Shown: positions 4,038 through 36,822, numbered from the stretch's first letter. The stretch: 64,000 nt of DNA from an uncultured Thermoplasmata archaeon (GCA_963749235.1 CAVVLV010000001.1:28920-92919); one strand, 5' to 3'. The notes: a model not told the origin generated them from the sequence alone. Made by a program: numbers and translations.

Positions 4038-4058
4038 GCCGGGGGCGGCCGCGCTCCT

Positions 4059-10996: not shown

Positions 10997-13900
10997 CTAG
11001 TCCGGGGCCTGACCGAACGTCGTGAACGCATAGAAGCTCCCGTTCGCGTCGGCGACATAGATCGTCCCGTCGACGATCGCAGGGGTCGTCGTCAAGACTC
11101 CCGTCGTCGGGTACTTCCAAACATTAAGGGGCGTGTAGGCACGGGCCGCGCTGATCTGCCCCTTGGCGGTCTCCATGACGAAGATCCCTTCTGCTGCGGC
11201 GACCCCGACGATCGGCCCGTGGGTCGTTACCGTATAGAAGAGGGCTCCCGTCAACGCGGAGAGCACGTAGAGCTTACCGTCGCTCGCGCCGACCGCGAAC
11301 TCGAGCTGACCTCCGTTGTACGTGTAGTGGTCGCTCAGGACCCCGGTGTCGATGACGGTGCCTCCGGTAGTGAACGACCAAATTTTCGTCCCGGTCGACT
11401 GGTCGATCGCGTAGACGTTCTTGTCCGTCGAGCCGATGTAGACCACGCCACCGGAGATAGTAGCCGCGGCGTCGACCGCGCCGCCAGTCTTGAAGTTCCA
11501 CTGCGTCGCCCCGGTCAGCGAATTGAGCTCGGTCACGTTCCCGCTCGACTGTCCGACTACGAGGAGGTTCGCGGTCGAGTTCAGCGATACCGCCGAGGTG
11601 ATCTTACTCGGGAGGGTCACCGTCCAGTAGGTCGCCCCCGTCGATTCATTGATGGCGGAGACGTTGCCGGTAGAGGTCGTTACGTACAGCCTCCCCTGCG
11701 CGTAGATGGGTGCCGAGACGTTGCCGCCGACCGACGTCGACCAAGCGGTGGTGCCGTTCGACGAATAGACCGCATCGACGGTGCCGTCGTTCGCCCCGAC
11801 GAAGACCAGTCCCAGGCCCGGGTCGACGGCGGGGGAGCCATCGATCGGTCGTCCGCTCGGAAGGGTCCAGTTCCAGAGCATGCCGGCGTTCTGGATATTG
11901 AGGGTGTACAGGTTGCCGGCATGATCTCCGACATAGGCCACTCCGTCCACGATCGCCGGGGATGTGGTGAAGGCCGAACCCACAGTGAAAAGCCACGCGA
12001 GGTTCACCCAATAGTTCCCGCCGGGGTGGATGAGGAAATTGAGCGTCGGGTCGTTCGGCTCGTACCCGGTGTGACCAGGGTTGAATCCCAACTGGTCCCA
12101 GTTGTTCGAGACGATGATCGGAGTGCTCGCGGACTTGCCGGAGGTCATCCCGGTCGCGGTCAGGGAGGTGTCGCCGAACGCCGCCTTGCTCGGGATCTTG
12201 ACGCTCGTCGCCTTGAGGTCCCCCGTGGAGGACGCCGTCACCGTGGCGAGCAGGGTGCCGGTGAGGGTGATCTTCACCTTCTCGCTCCGGTTGAATCCGG
12301 CGCCGTTGACGACCACGCTATCGCCCGGGGGAACGAACTTCTGGGAGGCTTGGATGTGAGGGCCGGAGGTGCTGTACAGCACGCCAAACCCGACGACGTC
12401 TGAGTGAATGCCGGACTGACCGGAGGAGGAGACACCGTAGGTCGTAACGACGTAATCACCTCCGCCCCGCGCGGGCGGGAAGGCGAAGCTCCAGGAGCTG
12501 GTCTTGGATCCGCTCGACGCGAGCGTCGCCCAGTTCACATAGGGACCGGCAACCCAGCTCTGCGTTGGGCCGTCCCACCAAGTCCCGCCGACCCCGTTCG
12601 CCTGGATGGCCACCTCGACCCCGGCGACCCCGAGCGAATCCGTCGCGTTGCCCCGCACGGTCAGGTTGCCGTTGGGATTCGGGAGGTTGGCCGATGCGGC
12701 AGGGTACGATACCGAGGCGGTCGGGAGGGTTGAGTCATTCCCACCGCCGACCGCGAAATCGTACAGGAACCCATCCGTCGAGGCCAACAGGATGTTCCCC
12801 CCGACGATCGCGGGGGACCCCGTGATGTAACCCCCCGTCTGATAGCGATACAATTGGGTGCCCCCCGACGCCGACAAGACATCGAGCCCACCGGCGATGT
12901 CCGCGGTCGCGACCACGGCCGTCCCGTGGCCGCCCGCGATGGCCGGGGAGGCGATCGACTCCTGCTTGACGGGGTCCTGATAGTTCCACACGAGGGCACC
13001 CGTCTTCGCGTTGAGGTTGAACAGCCCATCGGAATAACCGAAGATCAGGTCCGTTCCGTCGATCGCGGCGGTGGACCGACCGCCGTCCGTCCCATTGGCG
13101 ATCCCCGCCAGGCGGTCGAAATTCGTGGACCAGATGGGGGTGCCGTTGTTGAGATTCAAGGCGTACATGATCCCGTACTTGCTCGGAACGTACGCAACGC
13201 CTTGGGTGAACCCGTTCTTGCCGGGGGCCGAGATGGTCACGCCGGCCCCGATGTCGTAGACGCCGGGGGGCGGGTTGTAGGCCTGGAACCTCCAGATCAG
13301 AGTTCCCGTAAGGGCGTTGAGTTCGTAGACGGCCGCATCTGGGTCGGCGGTCCCAAAGAGGACGACCGGGGTCCCGTTGGCCAAAACCCCGTAGGACGCG
13401 GAGTCCCACGTGCCGGAAGTGCCACCCTGGGTCCCGAAGTTGCTATAGGTCCACTCGAGGGAGCAGTTCCCGGCATTGATCGCCTCCATCGCCCCGTCCG
13501 TACTCACGTCGTCCTCGCTCCCGATGTAGATCGTGGCCACTCCGCCCGGAGGAGTCCCCTCGGTCGGGGTCCCTTCGAGCGGGCGGCTCGAGATGGCGGA
13601 GCAGTCGGTAGCCCCCGTCGTCGCGTTGAACTTGATGAGGGTCGGGTTTGAGAATGTGCCGACGTACAGCGAGCCGTGGTACACGAGCGGAGAGGACCGG
13701 ATCGGGGATCCCACCCAGGTGGCCCACACGATCTGACCGTTCGAGACGTTGATCGCGAGAATGTTCCCGCTCTCGGTGCCAACATAGGCCAACGTCGCGT
13801 GAAGGGTCGGGTCGTACGCCGCGACCGGCGAATCGAGTGCCGCGCCGAACATATCGGTGGCCCAGGCGACCCCCAGCGTGGAAGCGTTGGACGAGGAGAG

Positions 13901-14164
13901 GGGACTGTTCGTGGCCAAGCCGGTCAGGAGGGGGTTCAGATGAAGTTCAGGCCAGTCGTCAGCGGAACTGTGGGCCACGACTGCGTGCGGCAGTGCGGAC
14001 GACGGGACACCCCGCACGGTCGGAGGCAAGGTCCCCATCGATCGGCCCGGGATAGTCGCGAACGCGCTGACCGGTAGGGCGACCAGCAACGCCACGGCTA
14101 GCGCCGCTCCCAATAGGGCGGGACGGCCCGTGGATCGGGACCCAAGCCCCCGAGCTCGATGCAC
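10997..14164 (-). CDS. Secreted protein with two PQQ/BamB-type beta-propellers separated by Ig-like domains (paralogue 1)
   Basis: Signal peptide; DDWPELHLNPLLTG and NWDQLGFNPGHTG propeller starts; repeated W.(F/Y).TGG.(I/V)..SP(A) blades; central LTVRGNATD and GDSVVVNGAGF Ig-like segments. Confidence 0.8.
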   Translation of the reverse strand: MHRARGLGSRSTGRPALLGAALAVALLVALPVSAFATIPGRSMGTLPPTVRGVPSSALPHAVVAHSSADDWPELHLNPLLTGLATNSPLSSSNASTLGVAWATDMFGAALDSPVAAYDPTLHATLAYVGTESGNILAINVSNGQIVWATWVGSPIRSSPLVYHGSLYVGTFSNPTLIKFNATTGATDCSAISSRPLEGTPTEGTPPGGVATIYIGSEDDVSTDGAMEAINAGNCSLEWTYSNFGTQGGTSGTWDSASYGVLANGTPVVLFGTADPDAAVYELNALTGTLIWRFQAYNPPPGVYDIGAGVTISAPGKNGFTQGVAYVPSKYGIMYALNLNNGTPIWSTNFDRLAGIANGTDGGRSTAAIDGTDLIFGYSDGLFNLNAKTGALVWNYQDPVKQESIASPAIAGGHGTAVVATADIAGGLDVLSASGGTQLYRYQTGGYITGSPAIVGGNILLASTDGFLYDFAVGGGNDSTLPTASVSYPAASANLPNPNGNLTVRGNATDSLGVAGVEVAIQANGVGGTWWDGPTQSWVAGPYVNWATLASSGSKTSSWSFAFPPARGGGDYVVTTYGVSSSGQSGIHSDVVGFGVLYSTSGPHIQASQKFVPPGDSVVVNGAGFNRSEKVKITLTGTLLATVTASSTGDLKATSVKIPSKAAFGDTSLTATGMTSGKSASTPIIVSNNWDQLGFNPGHTGYEPNDPTLNFLIHPGGNYWVNLAWLFTVGSAFTTSPAIVDGVAYVGDHAGNLYTLNIQNAGMLWNWTLPSGRPIDGSPAVDPGLGLVFVGANDGTVDAVYSSNGTTAWSTSVGGNVSAPIYAQGRLYVTTSTGNVSAINESTGATYWTVTLPSKITSAVSLNSTANLLVVGQSSGNVTELNSLTGATQWNFKTGGAVDAAATISGGVVYIGSTDKNVYAIDQSTGTKIWSFTTGGTVIDTGVLSDHYTYNGGQLEFAVGASDGKLYVLSALTGALFYTVTTHGPIVGVAAAEGIFVMETAKGQISAARAYTPLNVWKYPTTGVLTTTPAIVDGTIYVADANGSFYAFTTFGQAPD

Positions 14165-14249: not shown

Positions 14250-16441
14250 CTAGATGTATTCCTGGGCGGCCTCGGGGCCGAAGGTGCCGATCGCTTCGAA
14301 GCGGAAGGTCTGCTTCAGAACGTTCAGGAACGGGAAGGCGACGATCCAAGGTAGAGCGTCGTACCGTCGGAGCCGGACGAGGAAGTAGGCGAGCGGCACC
14401 CCTCGGATGACGATGGCTAAGGCGAGCAGGATCGCGGTATCAAAGAGGGCCGGCACTCCGAGGATGACGACGAGCAGGTACCGAGGTAGACATAGACCAG
14501 GCTCCGCAGCCCGGATCGGATCGCCAAGAGGAACCAAAATAGGACGGCGAGGCCGGCGAATTCCGGGGTCGGCCCGAAGAGGGATTCATAATGCTGGCCG
14601 TTGGCCATCAAGATCCCCCGAGACCACCGAACGCGCTGCTTTCGGAGCGCGGTGTAGTTCTCGGGCACGTCCTCGAACGCGACGGCGCCGAACTCCATCC
14701 GAATCTGGTAGCCGAGGCGTTGGATCCGGATCGTGATCTCGGTGTCCTCCCCGTTCCAGGGCACCCATCCACCGAGCTCGACTAGGTCCGCCCGACGGAA
14801 GGCCGAGAAGAGTCCGTCGATGACTTCCGCACTGCGCGTTCCCATGCCCGCGGGGCGGAGGAAGTAGTGCTGCCAGGCGATCTCGAGCGCCCGCATCTTG
14901 CGGGTCCACCCGTTCTTCTGGCGCGGGTGGATAGCGCCCTGCACCCCCCCGACCTGCGGGTCGGCGAAATGTCCGACGATGGCGCCGAACCCGGGAGTAA
15001 CGGAAAGGTAAGTATCTCCGTCCACCCGAATGACGATCTCGTTCCGGGCCACAGCGAGGGCGCCGTTCAGCGCATTGGATTTTCCCCCGTGGGGCATATC
15101 GACCACGACCCCGGTGGCGTGGGACATCTGGGCGATGGCCGCGCGAGCGATCTCGAGCGTCCGGTCGGTCGACCCGTCATTCCCCACGACGACCTCGACC
15201 GACCCGGGATAGTAACCCGCGGCCGCGTCGGCGGAGAGGATCGCGCCCCGGATCCACTCTTCTTCGTTGTACGCCGGGATCAGGATGGACACGGAGGGGT
15301 GGTAGGCCACTAGGGGCGGCGGCGGATGCCTCCGAATGCGGCGAAAGTACAGCGTCCGCCCCATTACACCGAACAAGGGGAGGGTCAGCACGGGAAGGAG
15401 GAGTAAGAGCGTAAAGGCGAGGACGATCGAGTTCGCGCGGAGGAGGGCAAGGACGGCGACAATGATCCCCACGCCAAGGAGCACTGCGGTAAGCCCGAGT
15501 AGGAAGAAGGTAGAGATCGCCCGACGATCCCGGGGGAAGCGGGCCCGAATCTCCTGAGGAGGAGGTAGGTAGATGGCGCAGAAGGTCAGCAGGGTGAAGA
15601 ACAATCCACCCGTGAGGGCGCGGGCGAGGAGACCGAAGTTCCGGAAGATCGAGCCCGGGAACGTGAACAGGAGTGCGTCGAGGATCAACTCGACGGCCAA
15701 GTAAACGAAGATCACCCCGAGCGCGAGAAGTCGTCGTCGCCGTGAGAAACGGGCGGAGTTCGAGGCGAGCCCGCTCGCGAGGAAGAGGGCGATCATGCCC
15801 GCGACGTACATCGGGAAGATGTAGTCGGGGACGATGAGGCTCGAGTTCCCAACGGCAAAGACGCCGGGCCAAGAGAGGGGCCAGTAGAGGAACGTCCCGG
15901 TCAGGGCGACCAGGTAGTCGTAGGGTCCGAACAAGGCCGCGTAAAAGACGAGGACCACCAGAGCTCCCAACCCGAAGGCGATCGCGAGCTTCACGACAAA
16001 GCCCAGCGCCCGGGGAAGGGGAAGGGAAGGGTGGGAACCTGCCCCGACCATTCGAACGACATGGGTCCGGCTCTTGGTGTACACTCGCACGACGGGAGCC
16101 GGGTCGGGGGCGGAGGGGGCTGGGGCCGACGGATCGCTCGGACGCGGCGAGGCGACCGAGGAGACATCCAGGCTCATCTGCACGGTCCTGGCTCCTTCCG
16201 TTCGGGGTCGGTTCTCGAGCCAGACAGCCGTTAGGTAGAGTATCACCCCCAACCCTACTCCGACAAGCATCGCCCCGATCGGAAGGTCGAGGGGTCGGAG
16301 CCAGACCCCCAACCGATGGATTCCTTCGCGCAGCCAGCCGAGCTCGTTCCACAGCCAAACTCCGATGGCGACCAGGGGGTTTCCGAGGGCCAACCAGCCG
16401 AAGAGCGGAGCGGTCTCGAAATCCGCGCGCGCCGACTCCAA
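14250..16441 (-). CDS. Processive GT2 polysaccharide synthase with N-terminal multi-TM domain (GT2a); indel near 14490; start uncertain
   Basis: IPAYNEE, GNDGSTD, GGKSNALN, RVDGD, GEDTE, KQRVRW; C-terminal TMs continue in ORF 14250..14537. Confidence 0.85.
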
Positions 16442-16467
16442 CGGTTGTCGGTCCAGTAGTGGGCCGT

Positions 16468-19400
16468 TCAGGGCCGGGCTCCGGAGCGGCCCCGGCGCAC
16501 GGCGCTGAGCACGGCAAAGGTTCCCCAAGTAGCGACCCCCAGCGCGGCCACTACCGTCAGGGCTGCGCCTCCGACCGCCCAAATGGACGGCAGGAGAGGT
16601 CCGTCAGGGATGGGAGAGAAGGTAATCAGCAACGAGGACGGATTTCCCTCCACACTTCGCGTTCCTTGCCGGGGGGAAGCGGAATATCCGTGCGGTGCGA
16701 CCACGGTGAAGTTGAAGGTCCCGTTGCGAATCTGGAACTCGGTAATCTCGACGGTCGAGATTTCGGATAGGTCCCCGACGTAGACCCTCCACATCGCTCC
16801 CGCCGGCAACCCAGTCTCCGCGAAGATGACCGAGTAGACGATTGGTTCGAAGGTGACACGAACCTGGAACGAGATCCCGTCGACCGAGATCGATCCCGAC
16901 GCCGGCGTGGCGGCGTAACCCGGGGGCCCGAGAACCCGGTAGAAGTGGGTGCCGTTGAGAAGACTGGCATTGGTCCACGCTCCTCCCCCAGTGTGTGGCG
17001 CCCCGTCGACCAGGATCGACCACACAGGCGCGCGCCCGAGTCCGGTTTCGGTCCAGATAATCTTGTAAATGTCCACCTGGGTGAAGGTGACCGCGACCTG
17101 GATGGGGCTTCCGTCCACGTCGAACCACCAGCTCGATGGCTGCGCCACGAACCCGGTCACGGCCGAAACGTGGTAGCCAAAGGTCCCGTTGATTTCCATC
17201 GCCGTTATTGCTGGGGTATCGGATGAGAAGCTGCTGTTCCGAACAGTTACGAACCAGCTCGCTCCGGCAGGAAGTCCCGTCTCATCGAAAGTAACGGTGT
17301 AGCGGGTGGGTGGTGGGTGCAGGGGCACGAAGGTAATCGTGATGGTCAACGCTTGGCTCTGGATCGAGAAGGAGTAGTTGCTCGGGACAGCCCGGTACCC
17401 GCTCACCTGACCGATCTGGAAGCCGTACTTGCCTTCCTTCTCCTGGAAAGCCACGACTGCGCCCGTCGTAACTTCCTTGATCCCGCGGACGGTCACGTTC
17501 CAACTCATGCCGGTAGGGAGCCCGCTTTCCTCGAAGGTGACCGGGAAGGTCGCAACGAATAGGACGGGTACGGTGAGATTGGCTCCATTCACCCCGAACG
17601 ACGAATTCTCCGGCGCTCCCCGATACCCGGGCACTGAGCCGAGTTGGTACCCGTACGTACCGCTGGTTTCCGTAAGGACGATCACTCCCGGGGAGGAGTT
17701 GGTTGAGCTGTAGCTGACGTTACGAACCGTGACCGACCAGATCGTCCCCGTCGGGAGGCCCTCCTCCGCTAACTCGACCTGATAGGGGTTTTTCGCGAAA
17801 ACGAGGGAGATGGGGGAAGGGGACGCACCCGCGATCACGAACGTGAGGTTCGCCGGTTTCACGAGGTGATACCTGGGGATTGTCGAGACTTGGAAAGCGT
17901 ACGTGCCGTTGCGTTCGGGCACGGTGAGGTTCGTGCTGGAGCTGGGGTAATTCAACCCCCGAATCGTGACGTTCCATGGAGTGCCCGGGGGCAGATTCAC
18001 CACCTGGAAGGTAACCGAGTAAGCCGAGGTGAAGAACGCCTTCTCAGAGATCGGCCCCGTAGGCGTGACGGTCACGGGATCCGTCTTTCCCGAGTAGTTG
18101 CCCGGACCGTAACCGCTCCAGTGGGAGAACACGAACCCCGGATTGGCCGACGCCACGAGGGTGGTCGGAACGCTCGCGTTCAACCACGAGACGGAAGGGG
18201 AAACCGTGCCCCCATCGGAGGGGAGCATCGTGAGGGTGAGGGAGGACTGGTTGACAAATTGCACGGGAACGGTCGTTGGGGAACCTCCGACCACAATCGA
18301 GTTGGTCAGGAAGGGCTCGAGCCGCTCCGTAGAGTTCGTCCCGTTGCCCGTCACCGAAAGGGGGAACTTGCCGGTCAGCGGGAGCGCAACGGCCTCGGAT
18401 TGCGCGGAATAGGTACCCCTCGGCAGGAACGCAGTGATGTTCCCCGTGTGGTTGGTCGTTTCCATTTGGCCGTTCACATCGACGAACCATCGGACAGGCC
18501 CGTGCTGACCCGAATTGAGGTAGTTCGGCAAGCCGGACTCGGTGAACTGGATGGGGACCCCCGCCGAATTGGGGTACGACTCGAACAGGACCAGGCTCTG
18601 GGCCGGCAGGGTCCACGTAGAAGGAAGCCCGTTTGGCAGGTATTCGGCGACGGGTTCGGGGGTGTTGGAGAAGGAGGTGCGTCCCCCGGTCCCGTTGACT
18701 TCTGTCCCATTCCAGTACCATACTTCGACTGGATTCCCCGGGGAGATTCCGGGGAGCTGCGGCGTGAAGCTCACATTGTTCGGCGCTGTCAGCGAGGTGT
18801 TGAGGTTCACGGCCATGAGGTCTGCGCGATTCGAGTCGCTCGGGTCGGTGGTGGCGATCGCATAGAGGTTGGCGTGCAACGTGCGATTCGAGCCTCCGTA
18901 GTACGCCGTCACATTGGGCGGCGTGAGTGTTGCGGGGTAGACCACAGTCCCCAGGTGCGGCAGGATCTCGCTAAAGAGGGTGTAATCCGGGCGTGGGACC
19001 AGGGTCGCGGCGTCGAACCAAGAATTGCTGGTGTAGAACACCGAGGCATAAACGTCCATGTTGGTCACGTTGAGCGCCATACCCTGGATGGCTTGGGCAG
19101 CGTAGGAAAGCGCTCCGGGGTAGCCTACGCTGTATCGTTCGAACCCGTAGTGGGAGAGGCCCGAACCGTCCTCCGTCACCCAAACCTGGACGGTGTGATG
19201 GACCCCGGGCCAGTAGGTGGCCATCGTATTGTTAACGCCCTGGCGAATGCTGTTGACCCGGGCGGGGAGACCGGCGGGACTGGCGAGGAAGGCGTAGAAC
19301 TGGGCCAGCGTGGAGTTGCCGGAGTTCCCTGCCGGATAATCGTGAAAGGCAACTCCGGTGAGATTCGGACCGTTGATCTGCACCGTGGCATTGGCCCACG

Positions 19401-20226
19401 CGGTCACCGACCAGTTCCCGTTGTTTCGACCGGTAACCGGCACGCCGATGATCTGAATATTCGGGTCCACCACTCTCATCGCCTGAGTGTAGTTGTTGAC
19501 CTCCCAGGCGTATTGGATTGGGGTCACGTCCTTGTCCGTTCCGCGTAGATTGAGGTTGATCTGTCTGCAAGCGTCGTCCCAGTCCTGCCAAGGACAATTC
19601 CAGTGTCTCCAGATCTCGGGCTCGTTGCCGATTTCCCACGCTGTCGCCTTGAAGTGGAGAACGTCCTCCGTGTAGGCCACGATCTGTTGGGCGAGCGTGG
19701 TGTTGTTGACCTCCCCCGGCACTTGCATGATCGCCGTGCAGTTGATCGAACGGCACCACTGGACGAACTCCGCCTCGCTCGCCGAGGCGTTCACCGTGAC
19801 AGGAGGCGAACCCACTGTATGGATTTGGGTGGGGCCGCTCATGCTGCCAGAGGTCGAGACGACGCCGGTTGGATTGCTGACGGAAATGCTGAGATTCGTG
19901 GGGATTGGGTCATATTCATCCCCTGCCGAAGCACCTGGCCACACGATGACGCGGGCGGGTGTCGCCTCGACGAGGCTGCTCACGTTCGCATAGATTGGGG
20001 TGTGGGGAGTGACGGTCGTTCCCCAGAACAGGCTGGACAAGTTGATGCCCCTCGAGTTGATCGTGAGGTTCACCGGCACGGCTCCGCCGGCCTGAGGCGT
20101 AGGCGAAAGCGGGGCCGGGCTCGGGGAGCGAAGGTTCGCTGGGCTCGCCATACCCGGCGGTGGGAGCAGTAGAGCGAGGACCACGATGGCCCCGATCACG
20201 CTCCAGGTTCGGATGCTAAATCTCAC
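16468..20226 (-). CDS. Cell-surface clan GH-A (GH79-like) glycoside hydrolase with Ig-like repeat stalk and C-terminal TM anchor (GH1)
   Basis: GTG 20226 then signal peptide (RFSIRTWSVIG); WEIGNEP acid/base, VWVTEDGSG nucleophile; seven F.E.GLP.G..W repeats; TM plus RRGRSGARP tail. Confidence 0.75.
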   Translation of the reverse strand: MRFSIRTWSVIGAIVVLALLLPPPGMASPANLRSPSPAPLSPTPQAGGAVPVNLTINSRGINLSSLFWGTTVTPHTPIYANVSSLVEATPARVIVWPGASAGDEYDPIPTNLSISVSNPTGVVSTSGSMSGPTQIHTVGSPPVTVNASASEAEFVQWCRSINCTAIMQVPGEVNNTTLAQQIVAYTEDVLHFKATAWEIGNEPEIWRHWNCPWQDWDDACRQINLNLRGTDKDVTPIQYAWEVNNYTQAMRVVDPNIQIIGVPVTGRNNGNWSVTAWANATVQINGPNLTGVAFHDYPAGNSGNSTLAQFYAFLASPAGLPARVNSIRQGVNNTMATYWPGVHHTVQVWVTEDGSGLSHYGFERYSVGYPGALSYAAQAIQGMALNVTNMDVYASVFYTSNSWFDAATLVPRPDYTLFSEILPHLGTVVYPATLTPPNVTAYYGGSNRTLHANLYAIATTDPSDSNRADLMAVNLNTSLTAPNNVSFTPQLPGISPGNPVEVWYWNGTEVNGTGGRTSFSNTPEPVAEYLPNGLPSTWTLPAQSLVLFESYPNSAGVPIQFTESGLPNYLNSGQHGPVRWFVDVNGQMETTNHTGNITAFLPRGTYSAQSEAVALPLTGKFPLSVTGNGTNSTERLEPFLTNSIVVGGSPTTVPVQFVNQSSLTLTMLPSDGGTVSPSVSWLNASVPTTLVASANPGFVFSHWSGYGPGNYSGKTDPVTVTPTGPISEKAFFTSAYSVTFQVVNLPPGTPWNVTIRGLNYPSSSTNLTVPERNGTYAFQVSTIPRYHLVKPANLTFVIAGASPSPISLVFAKNPYQVELAEEGLPTGTIWSVTVRNVSYSSTNSSPGVIVLTETSGTYGYQLGSVPGYRGAPENSSFGVNGANLTVPVLFVATFPVTFEESGLPTGMSWNVTVRGIKEVTTGAVVAFQEKEGKYGFQIGQVSGYRAVPSNYSFSIQSQALTITITFVPLHPPPTRYTVTFDETGLPAGASWFVTVRNSSFSSDTPAITAMEINGTFGYHVSAVTGFVAQPSSWWFDVDGSPIQVAVTFTQVDIYKIIWTETGLGRAPVWSILVDGAPHTGGGAWTNASLLNGTHFYRVLGPPGYAATPASGSISVDGISFQVRVTFEPIVYSVIFAETGLPAGAMWRVYVGDLSEISTVEITEFQIRNGTFNFTVVAPHGYSASPRQGTRSVEGNPSSLLITFSPIPDGPLLPSIWAVGGAALTVVAALGVATWGTFAVLSAVRRGRSGARP
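16600..18560 (-). repeat. Protein-level tandem ~80 aa Ig-like (thermopsin C-terminal type) repeats in GH1
   Basis: Repeat heads FTESGLPNY, FQVVNLPPG, LAEEGLPTG, FEESGLPTG, FDETGLPAG, WTETGLGRA, FAETGLPAG, most with an NGT(Y/F) motif, plus one InlB-B-like unit. Bounds approximate. Confidence 0.75.
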
Positions 20227-20709
20227 GCTCGTGTGGGACTCCTGGACCCGGGGATGCGATCCCGCTGCCCGACGGGCGGGCGACGGGTGTGGATTGGGGG
20301 GGTCGTAAGACTTTCGGAGGACGCTCGAAACGGGTGGATTGGTCGGGGGGTGCCACGGGTCGGGCCTCCCCCCGCAGAACGCAGTTCCGTCTCTCGGGAT
20401 TGTCGGCAAGAGTGATGCGGGATAACCGCAAACATGTGCCGATTGTGCGTGTAAAGTGCCCGCTCCATTATTTCCTTCTGTGCCGAAGGGGGGAGGGCCA
20501 CCCTCGGGCTGCGTATATGCGTTGCTCCCCTCGGGGTTGACGGGAGCGGGTGTACGGCGTCGTCCTGCTGTGATACGTCCGGCACGTGCCGACCCCAATC
20601 GCGGGAAGCGCGTAACCCGGCACCCGTGCGATTCGGCGATGTGAATTGAGCTGTGCCCGCAACCCGGGTGTCGGCGACGCCTAGGTATCCCAATCAAACC
20701 GGGGGCGGG

Positions 20710-23700
20710 TCAAGATCGACGTCCCCGTTTCCGACTCACGGCGCCGAGCGCGGCGAACGTCCCCCACGCGGCGAATGCGAGCACCGCCGCCACGCTCACC
20801 GCCGTTCCGGCCACGGTCCAGTCAGAGGGAAGCACCGGCCCATCGGGAATGGGGGCGAAGGTGATGTGCAACGACAGCGGCCCCCCACTTACAGACAAGG
20901 TTCCCTCTCGGGGTGAAGCGGAGTAACCGTGAGGCCCTACGATGCTGTACGCGAAGCTGCCGTTCCGGATCTCGAACGTGTCGCTGGTGTCGGTTGAGAG
21001 GGTGACCAGGGTCCAGAGGGTGACCCTCCATCCACTACCCCCCGGTAGCCCCGACTCCGAGAACGTTACGGTGTAGTTGATCGGGCGGAAGAGGATCCGA
21101 ACCTCGAGCGACGTCCCGTTCATCGAAACCGATCCCGATGCCGGCGTGGGCGCGAATCCTTCCGGTCCGTGGACCCGATAGGTGTGCGTACCGTTGGAGA
21201 CGAGAGCCATCGTCCACGCGCCGCCCGAGTTGTACGACGCCCCGTCGACCGTGACCGACCACTGGGGGGCCGGTCCAAGCCCCGACTCGTTCCAGACGAG
21301 CCAGGTACAGGTCGACCTGCGTGAAGTTGACCGATACTTGCACGGGCGCTCCCTGCACCTCGAAACCGGCGTGCTGGGGGTGGGCGGCAAAGCCCAGGAT
21401 CGGGGTTACCCGGTACCCGAACGAACCGTTGATCTCGACCGTGGAGACCACCGGGCCGACTGAGGAATAGGTCGCATTGCGAACGGTGACGGACCATGCG
21501 GTTCCCGAGGGGAGCCCCGCTTCGACAAAATCGACCGGGAAGGCGGCCGCTGGCGGCGTGCGTTGGAGAAACGCGACGACCGTCGTTAGCGGGGCGCCGT
21601 TCACCATCACCGAAGCATTGGTGGGGATCGAGCGGTATCCGGAGACCGCTCCGACCTGGAATCCGTAGGTGGCGTTGACCAGTAGGAACACGATGGCCGA
21701 ACCCGAAGCGGATTCGGTCACGTTCCGGACGGTCACCGTCCAATCGATCCCGGCGGGGAGGCCGGTCTCGTTGAATGTGACGGCGAATTCGGCCGGGGGG
21801 TGGTACTGAGGGATGAACGAGATCATGATTGTCTGGGGACTGCCCTCGATCGAGAACGAGAAATTCTTCGGGGTGGACCGGTACCCGCTTACCGCCCCGA
21901 CCTGGAAGCCATAGGTGCCGTTCTTCTCGAGGAAGGCGAGGCTGGTCGTGGAGGACCACTCGGTAACGGCACGAACCGATACGCTCCAATTCGTTCCCGT
22001 GGGCAGCCCAATCTCCTCAAAGGTGGCCCAGTACCGAGGGGGGCGGGGGTGGCGGCGGAGTTCGCTTGATGAAGGTCACCTCTACCGTGACATTGGCCCC
22101 ATCGATCGAGACTGAACTGTTCTCCGGCGCGGCCCGATATCCCGGAACGGCTCCGACCTCGTAGCCGTAGGTGCCGTTCGTTTCTGCTATGAGGAGGCTC
22201 GCGGTGGAGCTCTGGTACGCCGTCCCCCGGATGGTAACGGTCCAGGGTGTGCCGGCGGGCAGGTTCTGTTCCAGGAACGTCACGAAGTAGGCTGGGGTGA
22301 AAAACGCCTTCTCGGTGATCGGTCCGGTGGGGGCGATGGTGACCGGATTCGCCTTTCCGGTGTAGCTGCCCGGTCCGTACCCGGTCCAACGGGAGAAAGC
22401 CTCCCCAGGATTGGCCGACGCCGTGAGTACAGCCGTCGCGCTGGCGTTCAGCCACGAAACGGTCGGGGACACGTTGCCCCCGCCGTCGGGCACCGACGTG
22501 ACGTTGACGGACCATTGGGTGGAGAAGTTGACCGGGTCGATTGTGGGAACGCTTCCCACGGTCAGCGGACTTGTGAGGAACGGTTCCAATCGTTCGACCG
22601 GAACCTTCTCGACTCCGTTCAGCGGAAGGGAGACCGGCTCGGAGTCCGGGGTATAGGTCCCCGGGGGAAGGAAGGTCGAGATCGTGCCAGAGTTGTTGGA
22701 AGTCAGTAGGAGATTATCCACCCGGACGTACCATCGTGTGGAGACCGGGAGCCCCGAAGCCGGGAACGTCACCGGTACCCCGACTAGGGAGGGGTATGCC
22801 TCGAATACCACCAGCGATTGGTTGCGCATCGTGAAGTTCTGTGGGAGTCCGCCGGGAAAGTACTGACTGGTGGGTTCGACCGTGGTCGCGACGGCCGTAA
22901 CGTTCCCGTTCAGATTCGCGAGGGTTCCGTTCCAGTACCACGCCTCAACGGGTACGCCCGTGCCGATCCCGGGCAGTTGGGGCGTGAAGTTCACGCTCGT
23001 GGTGAGGTTCAGGTCGACGGCCATCAGGTCTGCGCGATTCCCTGCGGCCGGGTCAACCGTGGCGACCGCGTAGAGGTTCGAATGCAGGGTGGAGTTGGAG
23101 TTCGATTCATTGCCGAAGTACAGGCTGGAGTTCGGCGGGAGCAAAGTGGTGGGGTAGACTTCCGTACCCAGGTGGGGGAGCACTTCGCTGTAGAGCGTGT
23201 AATCGGGGCGGGGGATGAGGCTCGAGGGCGGAAACCAAGAATTGGTGGTGTTGAGAACAGCTGCATAGAGGTCGAGGTTGGTGAGGTTGAGGCTGATCGA
23301 TTGCACGATCTGCGCGGCCAGGTCGAGGGCCCCGGGGAAACCCAAGCCGGTACTGGCTGTAGTTCCAGTGGGAGAGGGACGAGCCCACCTCCGTCACGTA
23401 GACGGGGACGGGCTCGCACGAGAGCCCGGCACAAAGCTTGGTAGTCTCGTTCGAGATCGCACTTCGGATCCCCGTGATCCGGGCGGCCAGGCCCGCTGGA
23501 CTCGCGATGGTCCCGTAGAACTGGGCGAGGGTCGGGACGCCAAACTTTCCGGCGGGGTAGTCGTGGAACGCGATTCCCGCGAGGTTGTCGTTCGGGGTGC
23601 CGTTCGGGTTCAGGAGGTTGACCGATACGGTCGCATTCACCCAATCGGAAACCGAGAGGTGGTTCTCGGGGCGGCCGGTCGCGGGCACTCCCAGGATCTG

Positions 23701-24459
23701 GATGTGCGGGTCGACCAGTCGCAAGGCTTGCGTGTAGTTCTGGACCTCGTACGTGTACTCGAGCGGGGTGACCAACTTGTTGTTGTGCCCGACCTTGTTG
23801 TTGTAGCTGGTGCAGAGGGGCTTCGTCCAGTCGTCCCAAGGACAATTCCAGTCCTTCCACAGCTCCGGCTCGTTCCCGATCTCCCACGCGGCCGGCGTGA
23901 AGTTGAGAATGTGCTCGGTGTAGTACACCACCTGCTGGGCGAGGGTAGTGTTGTTGACTTCTCCCGGAACCTGCAGGATCGCGGTGCAGTGGATCGACTC
24001 GCACAATGCGACGAACTGGGCCTCGTTGGCGACGGCAACGGTGTGGGTTGCGCCCACGTCGTAGAGCAGTGTAGGTCCGCTCGTATTGCCGCTGACCGAG
24101 GCCGAACCGTTCATCGGATTGATGGAGATGTTGAGCGAGGTGGGAATGGGATCGTACTCATCCCCGGCAGCGGCGCCCGGCCAAACCAAGACGTGGGATG
24201 GGGTCGCGGCGATCAGGTCGCTCAGGTTGGAGTGGAGGTCGGCCCGGGGCGTGACGGTGGTTCCCCAGTAATCGAGGGAGAGATTAAACCCGGTCTTGTT
24301 CATCTGCAGCGACACGGGCACGACACCAGGGTTTCCAAATGGCGCCCCCGAATTCAGCGCGGGCCGGCCATTCGAACCGCTGCTCGCCGAGATGCCCGAT
24401 GGGATGAGAAGCAGGAGGACAACCACCCCTAGTACGGACCATGCTCGGATTCCCATCAC
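20710..24459 (-). CDS. GH79-like surface hydrolase with repeat stalk and TM anchor (GH2); three indels (~23340, ~22050, ~21300)
   Basis: Segments join into a colinear paralogue of GH1: GDEYDPIPT, PGEVNNTTLAQQ, WEIGNEPELW, VYVTEVGSS, seven GLP repeats, PIPDGP-TM-RKRGRRS. Confidence 0.72.
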
Positions 24460-24750
24460 GCGCTCCCCTCTCGGCCTCGAGCCAGATGATCGATCTCTCG
24501 TGGCGAGTCACACATTTGGAAGGGGTAGTTCCTAAACGTTTCTGCGCGAACCGGCGCGGACCGAGTTCTCGGGATGACAAACAGACGGGCGGGGAAGAAC
24601 GCGGATTCGCCGTCCATCCCTTCGCAATGGCGGCGGAGGAGGCCCCGGGGGAGCGGGAGCATACGCCGATCTCGCGTGGTTCGCTGGAGCTGGCTGGCCC
24701 GTGCCCGAACGACGTGGCCGTGCCTTCGACGTAAGTTCGAGCCCATGGTT

Positions 24751-26879
24751 TCAGAAGAACTCGCTCGCCGCGCCGTACCGGACCGTGCCAAAGCCCTCGA
24801 ACCGGTAGACTGCCTTGATGATGCCGAGGAAGGGCCACGCCGCGATCCAAGGGAGGACATCGTACCGCCGCAGTCGGATCAAGAAGTACGCGAGCGGGAT
24901 CGCGCGAAGTGCGATCAGGGCCACGAGCAAGTAGAACGCATGAAGGATCCCGGGGAGCCCGAGGAACACCGCGAGCAATGCGAGGTAGACGTACACGAGG
25001 CTTCGCGCGCCGGCGTGCAGCACAAGGAGATAGTAGAACAACACCGCCAGACCGCCAAATTCCGGTGCCGCGGAAAATATCGCAGGGTAGTGGCGAGCGT
25101 TCGCGAACACGCCGCCCCGTGTCCATCGGATGCGTTGCCGTCGGAGAGTGGCGTACGTGGGCGGGACATCCTCGTAAGCGATCGCTTCGAACGCTAGGCA
25201 GACCCGATAGCCCACCCGCTGGAGCCGGATCGAGATCTCGGTATCTTCCCCGTTCCAAGGTTGCCATCCGCCGAGTTCCACGAGATCCTTCCGACGGAAG
25301 AGCGAGAAAGCTCCGTCCAGGACCTCGGCGGCCCGAGCGCCCATCCCCGCTGGCCGGACAAAGAGGTGTTGCCACGCGATCTCCATCGCCCGTAGCTTTC
25401 GGGTCCACCCGGTCTTCTGGCGGGGTTGCAACTGTCCTTGCACCCCGCCCACCTCGGGGTCGGCAAAGTAAGAGACAGCCGGGCCGAACCCGGTTTCCGC
25501 TGAGATTCGTGTGTCGGCGTCACAGCGGATCACGATCTCGCCCGTGGCGAGGGCGAGTGCCCCGTTGAGGGCGCTTGATTTGCCGCCGTGCGGAAGGTCG
25601 ACGACCGTCCCGGTCATGTGGTGCAGTTGCGCGATCGCATTCCGCGCGACCTCGGAAGTGCGGTCCGTCGAGCCGTCGTTCCCGATCACGATCGATACGG
25701 GTCCGGGGTAATTCGCCGCGGCCTGGTCCGCCGCGAGGATCGCGTCCCGGATCTCGGCCTCTTCGTTGTACGCCGGGACGACGAGCGTCACCGAGGGATG
25801 GTAATCGGCGAGCGAAGGCCGCGGGTGCCGTCTCCGTTGACGGAAGTAGAAGGGACGAACCATCACCGCCCAGATCGGGATCGCAACGGCCGGGAGGAGC
25901 AGTAGGGCGGTGAAGGCCGGGATGATCCCGTTGAGGGCCAGGTAGATGCTGACGTAGTAGATCGCGACGCCTCCGGTGAGGATCGCGACGCTCCCCAGCC
26001 CGAGGAACAAGGCGAGAGCACGCCGGTCCCGGGGGAACCGAGTCGCCACCCGAGGGAGGGGAGCGGGGAACGAGAACGTGCAGTACATCACGAGCGTCAG
26101 GAAGATTCCGCCGGTCAGGGCGCGGACGACCAGAGAGAGGTTACGGACCGGATCTCCCGGGATCGTGAAGAACAGGGCGTCGATGACCAACTCCACGCCG
26201 ACGTAGAGAAGGAGGAGTCCGGCCCCAGGACCCATCGTATTGCTGGGAGCCGTCCCTTCCGTATGCGAAGCCCATTCGCCAACAGCCAAGTGGTCGTCAA
26301 GGCGAGGTACATCGGGAAGATGTAATCGTAGACCAGCGGTGGGCCAACGGACTGACTATAGACCCCAGGCCACGGCTGGGGCCAGTAGATCGCCTGCCCC
26401 ATCCACCCGACCAGTCGGTCGTAGGGGCCGAAGAACTCGTGGTAAAACAGGAGCAAGATGGAGGCCAGTCCGACAAAGACGAGCAACAGCGCGAGCGAGA
26501 ATCGGTTGTCCCGGGGCACCGGGGTCGAGCCGGAATGGGTAGGGAGCGCGACGGACCCGGCTGTGTGCTCGGCCGCCGTCCATACATCCACCGTCACGTT
26601 GCGAGTTTCGGGTACTTCGGGACCCGGGTGCGCCGGTGCGGTGCCGCGAGTCCGAAGGAAGCGCACGGCTCGGTAGAGCGCGTACCCGAGGCCGAACCCT
26701 ACCGGGATCGCTCCGAGCGGGATGCCGGCATGCAGGAGTTCAGCGTAAACGGAGGTTAGGAATACCGGGATCGCAACGAACATCACCCCACGGCCGGGTT
26801 CGGTTGCCCCCCACACGGGTTGCCTACCGACGTTGCCTTCGCTCACCCCGCGGCTTACGGGGTTGGACCCGGGCCTCAA
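24751..26879 (-). CDS. Processive GT2 polysaccharide synthase with N-terminal multi-TM domain (GT2b); indel near 26250-26290
   Basis: VPAYNEE, GNDGSTD, GGKSSALN, RCDAD, GEDTE, RQRIRW. TTG start overlaps the GH3 stop (TTGA). Confidence 0.85.
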
Positions 26880-29800
26880 CGGGGCAACGCGTCCTCGTGG
26901 TAATCCGGGGCCACGTGAGAGCTGAGGGGAGGCTCCGAATCTTCAATGTATTCCGGCAGTGCGGAGGTCGGCGTCGCGGTCAGGGCCGTCGTGTTCGGCC
27001 GGGATCGACGGCTGAAGACCAAGAAGGTGGCAAGCCCGACCAACGCCAAGACGCCCACGACCGCGAGGGCTCGGCCGACTTCCGTCCACTCGGACGGAGG
27101 CGGGGGCGGACTGGGGAGGCCGAGGGTGAGGGCAATGATCTGGGGGGCTCCGGCTACGACCACCGTTCCGCCCCCGGGGGTGACGTAGCGACCCGACGGC
27201 GGTGTGACTCCGTAGTGGAAGGTTCCGTTGGCGACGAAGAAGGTCAGGACCGCGTTCGAGGAAGTGGCGTTCTGGCCGGCGAAACTGACGGACCAGTTCA
27301 GGCCGGGAGCCAGGGTCCCGACCGAGAACGTCACGGTGTACCGCGGAGGGGGAACCGGGGTCCATCGGACCCCGAGGGTGATCCCGCTCCCGGAGACCGT
27401 GATCCCTCCCTCCGGCGGGCTGGCCTGATATCCTGTCACGTTCCCGAACTGGTAGGTGTAGGTCCCGTTCAGGAGCGGGATTTGTAGATCCGATGTCGTC
27501 GAGTTGACCTGTTCGGAACGGACGGTCACCGACCATCGGGTGCCGTTGGGGAGCCCGGATTCTTCCCAAACAATTGGGTAGAAGACCGGGATCACCGAGA
27601 AGTCGAGGGTCATCGATACATCCGCGCCGGCCACGGTAAAGTACAACGACGCCGGGTGCACGGTGAACCCGGTCTCGTTCGCCACTTGGAACCCGTACGT
27701 GCCGTTGAACTCGGCAAGGACGAGGATTGGGGTGGTCCGGAGGTAGGTGGTGTTCCGGATCGTGACCGACCACTCCCGCCCCGCGGGGAGACCGGACTCC
27801 GTGAAGGTAACGGAATAGAGGACACGTAGGGCGGTGAACGTCACCGGGATCGTGACGTTGCTGCCCGCCACACTCACGAACGAGGAAACGGGGTGGACGG
27901 TGTACCCGGTCACATTCGGCACCTGGAACGCGTACGTGCCGTTGGGTTCCTGGACGACCACGGTCGAACCAACCCCGGCCAAGGGAACGCCCCGGAGAAG
28001 GACCGACCACGGGGTCCCGGTCGCCAGGCCGGACTCGACAAAACTCACCGAGTACCCCTCCGCGAAGATAGCCCGCTCATGGAGCGGTGCTCGCACGGTG
28101 AAGGTCGTGGGGTTCCGCGAGCCGCTATAGTTCCCCGGTCCCCAGCCATACCACGCTAGGAATCCGTATCCCGGACTCGGTGTGGCCGTCAGGGTGACGG
28201 TCGAGTTCACGTCGGCCCAGACTGTCGAGGGAGAGATCGTGCCGCTGGCGAGCGGGGTCACGGCCAGTTTCACGGAGTACTGGAGGAAGTACGGGACCGA
28301 GATGTTGACCCCGGCCGTGGAGAGCGTGAACTCGACGGACGGTCCCGGCGCATACCGTTCGGTGGTCAGATGGCCCGCGATTCCCACGACGGGGCCCGGC
28401 ACGGTCGCGTAGGATCCCGGTCGCAGGAAGAGGGTGATCGTGGGCGTCGAGGAGGTCGCGGTCTGGTTGCCGACGCCTACGAACCATCGAGTATCGCTCG
28501 GCAATCCGGTCTCCGTGAGTCGCACGGGTGCCGCTCCCCCGGGGAGCGCTTCGAAGAGGACGACCGATTGCTCGGGAAGGGTCCAGTTCGCCGGCAGGCC
28601 CCCGGGGTAGAATTCGGGAGTTGGGTTGGGAGTTGCCCGGCGCGACGTTATTGCCGTTCGGCCCGGAGATGTTCGTGCCGTTCCACTCCCAGATCTCCAC
28701 GGGGTCCCCGGCAGCGTCAGCCGGAGAGCCCCGGAGCGAACGAGACGTTGTTGAACTGGTTCAAGTTGGCGACCATCAGGTCCTCCCGGCCTCCCGCCGC
28801 GGGGTCGACCGTCGCGGTCGCGTAGAGGTTCCCGCTCACTCCGGGATCGCCTTTCACGGTCAACGTCGCCGGATACACGACCGGACCCAAGTGACTCAGG
28901 AAGTCGGTGTAGAGGGTGTAGAGCGGATGGGGGCTCCCGGAGATCGTATACCAGGAGTTGCAGGTGTCGAGGACGGCCGCGTAGGCCTCCACGGTCGTGA
29001 TGTTCACCGCGAACGCCTGGACGAACTCGGCGGCCATGAACAGGGCGCCGGCGAACCCCTCGCTGTAGTTGATCCCGTCCGGACGATGCGAGATCGCGGA
29101 TCCCATCTCGGTGTACATCACCGGTTCGGGTCCACATCCCAGCGCCTTGCAGCTCGGGCTGTAGGCGAGGGCCTCATGGATCCAGTTCTCCAGGTTCGGC
29201 ATGCGTCCTGGGATCGAGTTGTAGTTGGAGACGTTGAGATAGTGGTAGAATGTGGTGAGCGAGTTGGTCGAACCGGAAACATCCGGGTAGACGTGGACCG
29301 CCATTCCGGAGATGTTGGGGCCGTTCAGGGCGACCGTGGCGTTGATCCAGTTGTACAGGACCCCCCCAGGCCCGACCCCGGGAATCCCGATGAACTTGAA
29401 GCCCGGGTCGACCTTATCGATCGCCTGCGTATAGTTCCACTCTTCCGAAGCATACTGGGCGGCGTTCGGGGGGCCGGTGTAGCCGGTCCAGTCCGCCCAT
29501 TTGGCCGAGTAGGAGCTCCAGTGGTACCAGAGACCCGGCTCGTTCCCGATCTCCCAGTACGCCGGGGTGAACGAGAGGTTCTGCTCGGTGAACTGGACCA
29601 CCTGGGCCGCGAAGGTCGCATTGTTGATCTCTCCGGGTAGCTCCATGATGGCGGTGCAGTTGATCGACTTGCACCAGGTGACGAACTGGGCCTCGCTCGT
29701 CGGCGCGGTGCGATAGTCCGTGGAGCTGGAGTAGAGCTGGTTGTTGAACGGGTCGTAATCGTCGCCCGCGAACGCCCCTGGCCAGAGGGCGACCCGAGTT

Positions 29801-30066
29801 CCGGCGGCGCTGATCAGGGCGGATTCGTTCGCGAAGAATGGGGATCTCGCGGACACGGTCGTGCCCCAGAAGCTCTGGTTGAGCACGACGGCACTCGAAT
29901 CCATACTGAGGGTCGCGTTCAGGGCCGAGCCCGATAGAGGTTGGAGCGCGATGCCGAGGGAGGGTGGGGCCTGGGCGATCACGCCCCCCAACCCAAACCC
30001 GGAGACGACCACGAGCAAGGCCACCGTCGTACCGAAGAGTGCGAGGAGCGGACGGGTGGAGTGCAT
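26876..30066 (-). CDS. GH79-like surface hydrolase with shorter repeat stalk, TM anchor and acidic tail (GH3); two indels (~28750, ~28630)
   Basis: Signal peptide MHSTRPLLALFG, WEIGNEPGLW, VMYTEMGSA, five GLP-type repeats, TM, tail ending PDYHEDALPR. Confidence 0.72.
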
Positions 30067-30296
30067 GGATCGTTTGCAACCGGGCACGGGGCCGCGGGGG
30101 TCCCGGTGGGGTGATGTATATCTTGCGAGAGGGGGTTGTTAATCCTTCCGACAAGGCCCGACCGGGCTTTCGGACCACGGTCCCCTGGTCGCCGAGGGTT
30201 GTCCCGAGATTTCGGACGGCCCGGCCCTTCGCGAGTGTCTCACGGCCCCGGCGGAGCCTCGGGGTGGGCGGACGTCACGCGCGGCGCCCGGGAGGG

Positions 30297-30306
30297 ATTA
30301 AATATA
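30297..30306 (+). promoter_or_regulatory. TATA box of the 23S rRNA transcription unit
   Basis: attaaatata in a GC-rich background, preceded by purine-rich ggaggg, about 135 nt before the processing stem. Confidence 0.55.
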
Positions 30307-30440
30307 ACGCGTTGGTGCGAGACGAGGCCGCGCCACGGCGCAGCTGTTCGGTCGGCACATGCACCCGCAGAGGCTTTGGGCCTCTCCGGGGAAGGGCGAG
30401 GGCTCGCCGCCCAACCCGGCAGCGGGCCGATGACGCCGAT

Positions 30441-33448
<3,008 letters not shown>

Positions 33449-35873: not shown

Positions 35874-36773
35874 TCAAGCGTGGGACGTGGTGGAAGAAGG
35901 ACGCGGAGTTCGATGGCGGGGCCGATCCGCTGGAGGGAGTGCGGCTGGAACGGGCGTCGACGGAGCCGGAACGATCGCGGGCGCCGGGATGGGGGTCCCT
36001 TCGGGTGGGGTGGCGTGACGCACTCGTTCCGCGGCTTGCGCACAGTCCTCGGGGGACGAGTCGATGTGCAGGTAGTGTCGGGCCAATCGACGGGCGACCG
36101 CAGCGACCGTTCCGGTCCCTCCGAACATGTCCAGCACGACGTTCTCCCGGTAGCTGTAGAACTTCACGATCCGTTCGATGAGCTCCTCCGGGAACGGTGC
36201 CGGATGCCCGTGACGCTTCCGTTCCGGTGGAATGTGCCAGAATCCGTCCGAGAACGTCTCGAATTCCTGGGCCGTGATATCGGCCAAGTCCGGGTTCCCG
36301 GGAAGTTTCCACTGCCCCTTCGAGAAGACGAGGACGTACTCCCAGGAAGGGATGATGTGCGGATTGGACGGGCTCCGCCAGCTGCCCCACGCTGTCCGCC
36401 GGCCCATGGTCTGCTTGTACCAGATGATCTCGGTGCGCATGATGTAACCCAGGTCGCGGAGGTCGCGGGAGAGGTCGTGGTGGATCGGCCGGAAGTCCTT
36501 GATCGAGGTCGGCGCGACGTTCAGGACGAACCGGCCTCCCGGCACCAAGACCCGGTAAAGGGCCCGCCATACTTCCTTCAGCCACTGCAGATACGCCTCG
36601 GGCGGCAGGTCGTCCTCGTACCCACGATAGGCGATGCGCACGTTGTAGGGGGGACTCGTGACGGCGAGATGGACGGATTCCGGAGGTAGGGACTCCAGAA
36701 CGACCCGGGCGTCGCCAAGAACGATCCGGTCGCGCCAGTCCGGCGCCCTCGGCCGGCGTCGCCCTCCCGCCAT
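35874..36773 (-). CDS. Orphan beta-class DNA amino-methyltransferase (N4-C/N6-A)
   Basis: Motif IV TSPPY before motif I VLDMFGGTGT; HPAPFPEEL. Confidence 0.9.
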   Translation of the reverse strand: MAGGRRRPRAPDWRDRIVLGDARVVLESLPPESVHLAVTSPPYNVRIAYRGYEDDLPPEAYLQWLKEVWRALYRVLVPGGRFVLNVAPTSIKDFRPIHHDLSRDLRDLGYIMRTEIIWYKQTMGRRTAWGSWRSPSNPHIIPSWEYVLVFSKGQWKLPGNPDLADITAQEFETFSDGFWHIPPERKRHGHPAPFPEELIERIVKFYSYRENVVLDMFGGTGTVAAVARRLARHYLHIDSSPEDCAQAAERVRHATPPEGTPIPAPAIVPAPSTPVPAALPPADRPRHRTPRPSSTTSHA

Positions 36774-36822
36774 CCGAGGCGGGGACCGTCCTGCCCCTGA
36801 TGAGGATATCTCCGAACCGATC

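Follow-up and report, generated by a model that had tools for sequence, protein, structure and literature searches.

A conserved pairing of membrane GT2 glycosyltransferases with stalked glycosidases in Thermoplasmata: a candidate archaeal synthase-plus-hydrolase system

We analysed a 64,000-nucleotide stretch of DNA (the window; GCA_963749235.1, CAVVLV010000001.1:28920-92919) from an uncultured acid-soil archaeon of the Lutacidiplasmatales group of Thermoplasmata. It corresponds to C1:28920-92919 of a 1.81-Mb genome assembled in two contigs, with an estimated completeness of 78%, and its G+C content is 60-70%. Between positions 30066 and 14250 the window carries a cassette of five genes, three for glycoside hydrolases (GH) and two for family 2 glycosyltransferases (GT2). 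All lie on the minus strand in the order GH3-GT2b-GH2-GH1-GT2a, just as a first-pass annotation had described them, and this arrangement is far beyond chance. On balance, we favour the reading that the cassette encodes two synthase-plus-hydrolase pairs and an extra hydrolase for a cell-surface polysaccharide, with the predicted ectohydrolase trimming or releasing the chain. These archaea probably make such a polysaccharide and trim it themselves.

GH3 (26876-30066) encodes a putative surface-anchored clan GH-A glycosidase of 1062 amino acids (aa) when intact. It is followed by GT2b (24751-26879), a predicted membrane GT2 synthase whose length is 677 aa if translation starts at the ATG at 26783 and 709 aa if it starts at the TTG at 26879. 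Next come two further putative surface-anchored clan GH-A glycosidases, GH2 (20710-24459; ~1250 aa counted from the signal peptide) and GH1 (16468-20226; protein P0001, 1252 aa), and then the second predicted membrane GT2 synthase, GT2a (14250-16441). Only GH1 is intact in the window itself. A sister contig in NCBI (JBAVAJ010000094.1 of GCA_049585655.1; locus L009) is 99.92% identical to window positions 14748-30513, and its gene calls are all intact (GH3 1062, GT2b 677, GH2 1202, GH1 1252 and GT2a 729 aa). Since all five genes are intact in this independent assembly, we take them to be functional. The gap of 26-27 nucleotides (nt) between the GH1 stop and the GT2a start agrees with the earlier reading and with the independent gene call on the sister contig. 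The reported overlap of the GH3 stop with the GT2b start is possible, not certain: a TTG overlapping the TGA stop (TTGA) does exist, but the gene caller prefers an ATG 93 nt downstream on the sister contig. GT2a and GT2b share 52% identity and fall into separate clades, which means that the pairs are old. The first-pass annotation had called the synthases duplicated; they do belong to paralogous pairs, but the duplication is not a recent one. The cassette thus appears to consist of two old paralogous GH-GT2 pairs and one unpaired hydrolase, GH2.

The GH and GT2 families co-occur and co-diversify. In 41 relatives we found the GH family in 11 genomes and the GT2 family in nine, all within one genus-level group. 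Nine of the 25 genomes of this genus have both families, two have GH only and none has GT2 only (Fisher P=2.7e-5). Class-wide, GT2 occurs in 15 of 301 genomes, all belonging to one family of three genera. The distance matrices of GT2 and its partner GH correlate with a Mantel r of 0.86, a value reached by 0 of 2000 permutations. The first-pass annotation had made its proposal depend on GH-GT2 adjacency in relatives, and we found the adjacency conserved. A stalked GH gene lies directly upstream on the same strand at 14 of 14 evaluable core-type GT2 loci of relatives, and some loci read GH-GH-GT2 or GH-GH-GH-GT2. A GH-based scan of 185,579 species genomes gave 156 loci, which among the matches listed come from Thermoplasmata metagenome-assembled genomes (Candidatus Lutacidiplasma silvani, acid-soil AcS/SubAcS, Danish MFD and SPRUCE peat). 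GT2 follows 38 of the 45 evaluable terminal stalked GH genes, typically after a gap of ~70 nt. One of the 45 is followed by a propeller gene, and five further GHs head GH-GH-GT2 tandems.

Divergent GT2 subtypes (hidden Markov model score 450-700; L076, L080, L083, L099, L106, L028 and L020) also adjoin a GH of the same family. Their order is reversed, usually with GT2 first (L076, L080, L083, L099 and L106), next to a mid-length or short GH. At least three GT2 subfamily lineages, which differ in gene order, have thus retained the pairing. In Thermoplasmata archaeon SMAG_U10666 (DATGZO010000016.1; L032/L051), the closest other species, the order is GH-GT2-PQQ-GH-GT2-GH-PQQ. The units are shuffled there as GH-GT2 and PQQ modules, yet a GH precedes each GT2. 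A seeming GH-GT2 fusion in another genome (G065:C51; an open frame of 2154 aa) was discarded as a long stop-free frame in GC-rich DNA, with the GH in another frame.

Both synthases carry the D, DxD, GED and QxxRW motifs attributed to them earlier, in the form GNDGSTD, DAD, GED and QRIRW in GT2b and GNDGSTD, DGD, GED and QRVRW in GT2a. These catalytic motifs are invariant among 47 homologues. Pfam matched Glyco_tranf_2_3 and Glyco_trans_2_3, that is, GT2 families only, and found no PilZ domain. We placed the family by its NCBIfam model scores and by Foldseek. PgaC_IcaA ranked first among the NCBIfam models (E 3e-32), followed by NodC and then CelA, and the AglJ- and DPM-type models reached E-values of only 1e-4 to 1e-6. 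BcsA is the next solved match of the GT2 profile after the archaeal enzyme PcManGT. Profile positions 276-627 align to BcsA residues 66-445 and so span TM-GT-IF-TM (TM, transmembrane). The AlphaFold2 (AF2) model of P0122, an intact protein with 98% identity (pLDDT 82), has a GT-A domain, the QxxRW helix and three C-terminal helices. In its N-terminal part there are about seven helices and a small beta-hairpin, and two helices directly precede the GT domain. When this model was searched with Foldseek, PcManGT came out on top, and hyaluronan synthases, BcsA and chitin synthases were also matched. Cv-HAS aligned with a TMt of ~0.6 and a root-mean-square deviation of 4-5 Å over ~430 columns including the helices. 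These comparisons support the processive-type assignment of the first-pass annotation: the GT2s are predicted to be membrane-integrated, cellulose/PNAG/hyaluronan-synthase-like enzymes (PNAG, poly-N-acetylglucosamine) in the membrane-embedded processive-synthase branch of GT2.

GT2a has an extra N-terminal membrane domain of ~320 aa (15302-16441, minus strand; ~7 helices and the small beta-hairpin), and residues 1-320 of GT2b are the same domain. It matched nothing in Pfam or the PDB. Among 1.84 billion proteins it matched 28 cluster representatives, of which those of full length all have 665-805 aa. Judged by these searches, it appears to be a new membrane domain, a lineage-specific module fused to the GT2 synthase.

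The hydrolases bear out the features first ascribed to them. WEIGNEP is present in GH1, GH2 and GH3, and the second glutamate lies in VMYTE, VYVTE or VWVTE, the last being that of GH1. Each protein has a signal-like hydrophobic N-terminus and, at the C-terminus, a TM segment; its stalk is built of GLPxGxxW repeats of ~80 aa, and it carries 34-48 N-x-S/T sequons. The catalytic domain of GH1 covers approximately residues 46-610. Its glutamates E202 (NEP) and E352 (VWVTE) fall in two invariant columns, E157 and E307 in the numbering of the domain alignment. More than 130 homologues of this domain were found, nearly all annotated as "hypothetical protein [Thermoplasmata archaeon]". In an alignment of 50 of them the NEP glutamate, the TE glutamate, one histidine and several tryptophans are invariant. 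Neither Pfam nor NCBIfam matched the catalytic region, and profile scans found no recognisable carbohydrate-binding module in the GH proteins. In the AF2 model (pLDDT 91.9) the domain folds into a (beta/alpha)8 barrel, with an extra insertion at about residues 60-100, and a beta-sandwich at the C-terminal end. Strand 151-154 leads into GNEP at 155-158 and strand 302-308 bears E307, which puts one glutamate at the end of strand 4 and the other at the end of strand 7. The model thus predicts the fold of clan GH-A, the clan of retaining 4/7 enzymes.

The label GH79-like proposed by the first-pass annotation was too specific. The barrel, the beta-sandwich, the NEP acid/base after beta-4 and the nucleophile glutamate after beta-7 are indeed there, but they are shared by GH79, GH51 and GH44 and are common to the whole clan GH-A, so they do not discriminate GH79. 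Foldseek returned 202 PDB matches at E<=1e-3, with clan GH-A families at the top; among them, GH79 (proheparanase 5LA4, AcGlcA79A 3VNY, leech hyaluronidase 7EYO), GH51 (6D25, 2Y2W) and GH44 (3II1, 2YIH) tie at E ~1e-18 to 1e-15 and TM-scores of 0.55-0.73. With 12-16% identity and the barrel insertion the cassette GHs differ from all three, and no family stands out by fold. We take GH79 to comprise heparanase, the beta-glucuronidase AcGlcA79A and leech hyaluronidase, GH51 alpha-L-arabinofuranosidases, and GH44 endoglucanases or xyloglucanases. A phmmer search of the PDB with a single GH-domain sequence gave no matches. The 50-sequence profile gave weak GH51 matches (E 2e-3) and no GH79 chains. 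When 30 members were scanned singly against Pfam, GH44 was weakly matched in eight (best E 6e-4) and GH5 in one, and Glyco_hydro_79 had no match at E<=1. We conclude that the domains belong to an unclassified clan GH-A family, which is probably a new GH family.

The hydrolases differ at their C-termini. In GH3, approximately 3-4 GLPxG repeats and the TM segment are followed by a cytoplasmic tail of 42 aa (~26876-27005, minus strand) that is acidic and proline-rich; the tails of GH1 and GH2 are short and basic. Through its acidic tail GH3 could contact a partner in the cytoplasm, for instance GT2.

Next, we considered the polymer. The first-pass annotation had suggested a uronic-acid, glycosaminoglycan-like product. 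The UDP-sugar/GDP-mannose 6-dehydrogenase (PF00984) needed for UDP-glucuronic acid (UDP-GlcA) is absent from the cassette-bearing genomes G000 (the source genome), G010 and G017. G010 is 99% complete and has two GT2s and five GH matches. The presence of PF00984 among the genomes does not track the cassette. A uronic-acid polymer is therefore disfavoured as the leading idea, and the lack of the enzyme that makes UDP-GlcA also sets the cassette-bearing genomes apart from what GH79 would call for. None of the 25 genomes of the family, source genome included, has a carbohydrate esterase family 4 (CE4) deacetylase (PF01522), which rules out a PNAG- or Pel-style system with a deacetylase. GT2 enzymes invert and thus make beta-linkages. 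Clan GH-A enzymes are retaining beta-glycosidases with a protein nucleophile, whereas substrate assistance is the usual mechanism of enzymes that act on 2-acetamido sugars; the two-carboxylate retaining GH-A mechanism is typical for glucose-, mannose-, galactose- or xylose-type sugars at the -1 position. Since 6-dehydrogenases and CE4 are lacking, the GH-A mechanism uses two carboxylates and the weak sequence signal is to GH44 and GH51, the polymer is most likely neutral, with a beta-glucan as the first candidate and a beta-GlcNAc (N-acetylglucosamine) or beta-mannose polymer after it.

In the mechanism that we propose, each GT2 would be an inverting, membrane-embedded, cellulose/PNAG/hyaluronan-synthase-like enzyme. 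It would polymerise a nucleotide sugar processively at the cytoplasmic face and thread the beta-linked chain outward through its own helix bundle. The partner GH would be a heavily N-glycosylated ectoenzyme whose stalk of Ig-like repeats is fixed to the membrane by a C-terminal anchor, and its retaining GH-A domain with two glutamates would cut, trim or release the cognate beta-glycan. BcsZ, PgaB, PslG and KORRIGAN are hydrolases that trim or release their own polymers, and we propose an analogous role for the cassette GHs.

The cassette resembles the bacterial pairs BcsA/BcsZ and PgaC/PgaB, CslA/CslZ of Streptomyces and the PslG system. They too combine a TM-flanked membrane GT2 bearing D, DxD, ED and QxxRW with an extracytoplasmic GH encoded in the same operon. 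Like the cassette GHs, PslG, the GH39 enzyme of Psl, is moreover anchored to the membrane and combines a clan GH-A TIM barrel with a beta-sandwich. The bacterial cellulose system consists of BcsA with its PilZ domain, BcsB and the GH8 enzyme BcsZ. In contrast to the bacterial systems, the cassette belongs to a single-membrane archaeon without a porin or TPR scaffold, and it lacks a PilZ/c-di-GMP module and a CE4 deacetylase. Its GH is unclassified and sits on a glycosylated repeat stalk of 500-700 aa with a C-terminal anchor. Its GT2 has the unique ~320-aa N-terminal membrane domain, and the GH gene precedes the synthase gene. A parallel by description is found in wall-less Mycoplasma, where a single membrane GT2 synthase coats the cell with a beta-glycan (capsular beta-glucan or galactan). 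The lineages are unrelated, and we know of no paired stalked hydrolase for the Mycoplasma enzymes.

To our knowledge, very little is known about archaeal exopolysaccharide synthesis. In the literature we searched, we found no archaeal synthase-dependent system with this GH-GT2 layout, in line with the first-pass annotation, which knew of none. The paper on Lutacidiplasmatales genomes reports no GH families other than GH57, GH15 and GH133 (PMC9287336). The locus would thus offer a conserved, testable minimal module of synthase and ectoglycosidase in Lutacidiplasmatales-type soil and peat Thermoplasmata, and both proteins could be expressed heterologously for identification of the polymer. If our reading is true, it would explain by what means archaea that abound in acid soils form a surface coat or the matrix of a biofilm, and the logic of a synthase plus a dedicated hydrolase, seen in bacteria, plants and fungi, would extend to archaea.

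Several observations weigh against this reading. With the PgaC_IcaA model (TIGR03937) the two GT2s score 112 and 105 bits, below its equivalog cut-off of 422. CelA reaches 49 bits against 699, and all curated synthase models, NodC included, score far below their cut-offs, a clear difference from the enzymes on which they were built. The nearest solved sequence to the GT2 catalytic domain is PcManGT (6YV7; E 2e-26, 24-25% identity), reportedly a non-polymerising, dolichyl-phosphate-dependent mannosyltransferase of N-glycan synthesis that forms a 'half tunnel' only. The GH catalytic domain stands on a long stalk, far from the presumed exit of a nascent chain. No nucleotide-sugar, deacetylase, regulator or export gene lies within the cassette. 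Finally, six of the 45 stalked GH genes and all short paralogues have no GT2 neighbour, so the GH family also works without a synthase.

The relation to PcManGT gives rise to the alternative that the GT2s are lipid-linked glycan or lipoglycan transferases, PcManGT-like and with a dolichyl-phosphate-linked acceptor. In that case the stalked GH-like proteins would be abundant surface glycoproteins, an S-layer-like or glycocalyx scaffold whose glycans or anchoring depend on the GT2. We consider this doubtful. PcManGT, from Pyrobaculum calidifontis, is a crenarchaeal membrane GT2 with a 'minimal cellulose-synthase-like fold'. It is archaeal and membrane-integrated like the cassette enzymes and is the top match of their catalytic domain by both sequence and Foldseek. 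The 34-48 sequons, the signal peptide and the C-terminal anchor of the GHs are as in archaeal surface glycoproteins, Thermoplasmata are known for mannose-rich lipoglycans, and the window holds other glycan genes (GT4, DUF2079 and a GtrA/DPMS_TM protein). However, PcManGT has ~350 aa and three TM helices, whereas the cassette GT2s have 680-730 aa, ~10 helices flanking the GT domain and a glycosidase partner. QxxRW and GED are conserved in the cassette enzymes, their GT domain is flanked by TM helices at either end, the BcsA alignment includes membrane segments, and the hyaluronan synthases match over their helices as well. In addition, both catalytic glutamates of the GHs are invariant across the family, which points to an active enzyme and not to a purely structural protein.

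A bolder version of the synthase-plus-hydrolase reading is that the pairs form the envelope-building machine of a wall-less archaeal lineage. The N-terminal seven-helix domain would serve as a platform for binding a primer, a lipid or a partner, and the synthase would extrude the beta-glycan. The stalked GH-A enzymes would then be mainly transglycosylases or 'molecular rulers' that cut and re-graft chains at a fixed height. This height above the membrane would be set by the length of the stalk, which differs between the paralogues. The outcome would be a covalently organised polysaccharide coat in place of a cell wall or S-layer. We put this forward as an improbable extension.

The GHs might instead be nutritional ectoenzymes that degrade foreign soil polysaccharides, for instance beta-glycans of plants or microbes, their adjacency to GT2 reflecting co-regulation or genomic hitch-hiking. 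The hosts are heterotrophic soil and peat archaea, and the family is expanded, with nine GH-domain matches in the source genome and up to 12 in a relative. Some members stand without a GT2 neighbour, and the weak sequence affinity is to GH44 and GH51, which contain plant-cell-wall enzymes. We nevertheless judge this quite improbable. The adjacency is tight, on the same strand and often overlapping, and it has been kept in many species and in the three GT2 subtypes. GT2 never occurs in a genome without GH, and the partner families diversify together. Furthermore, the cassette contains no sugar transporter or catabolic genes, and no carbohydrate-binding module was recognised in the GH proteins.

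That the cassette is a set of decaying pseudogenes, as seven frame-breaking 1-nt indels across four of its five genes might suggest, is extremely unlikely, because the five genes are intact in the independent, nearly identical assembly and the errors follow a pattern typical of systematic long-read base-calling at a methylated motif. GH3 has two 1-nt insertions (28718 and 28636) and not just one; GT2b has a 1-nt deletion within a G-run (~26222), and GH2 has three 1-nt insertions (23349, 22034 and 21304), every one at GTAC. The single frameshift in GT2a lies at GGTACC (~14478), past the end of the sister locus, and the C-terminus of GT2a was taken directly from the window sequence. Over 15.77 kb the window and the sister contig differ by six 1-nt indels and six transitions. 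Six of these 12 differences fall within 2 nt of GTAC, where 3.1% would be expected (binomial P=8e-7). Together, the intact genes and the clustering at GTAC identify the frameshifts in the window as assembly errors; the first-pass annotation had asked for these indels to be repaired. The link to GTAC suggests that long reads were systematically miscalled at a methylated motif. In keeping with this, relatives with megabase contigs are named "MFD...bin" and their Illumina counterparts "..._ilm_asm_bin". The low completeness estimate of the two-contig source genome is probably an underestimate caused by such frameshifts. For annotators of this genome it matters that apparent pseudogenes are GTAC-linked errors of the long-read assembly. 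An N6/N4 DNA methylase gene lies near the cassette (35874-36911, minus strand).

The cassette is bounded upstream by a 23S rRNA gene (30474-33411, plus strand), which accounts for the lower-GC stretch of the window. This gene is complete and solitary: the 64 kb contain no 16S or 5S gene and only one tRNA (52405-52477). The rRNA genes appear to be unlinked, as in Thermoplasmatales. A TATA-like TTAAATATAA lies ~170 nt upstream of the 23S rRNA gene, in the spacer shared with GH3. A scan for sigma-70 promoters and terminators showed no enrichment; such models do not apply to archaea. Directly downstream of GT2a lies a gene for a secreted PQQ/BamB-like double beta-propeller of 1055 aa (10997-14164, minus strand). 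We rejected it as a third core component since it follows GT2 in only ~4 of ~35 related loci and is an occasional neighbour. Beyond the 23S rRNA and propeller genes, the flanks hold unrelated housekeeping or other glycan genes, none of which makes a nucleotide sugar. Two such glycan loci, not linked to the cassette, are a GT4 glycosyltransferase gene followed directly by one for a DUF2079 polytopic membrane protein (2574-6158, plus strand) and a gene for a GtrA/DPMS_TM-domain protein (41005-42657, minus strand).

Further along the window lies another member of the GH family, a paralogue of 492 aa that is short and lacks the stalk (46924-48402, minus strand). Divergent from it runs a second gene for a PQQ/BamB-like double-propeller, again of 1055 aa (48989-52156, plus strand). 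The neighbourhood of short GH and propeller recurs in another genome (G004, locus L013), and the two may form a separate conserved pair.

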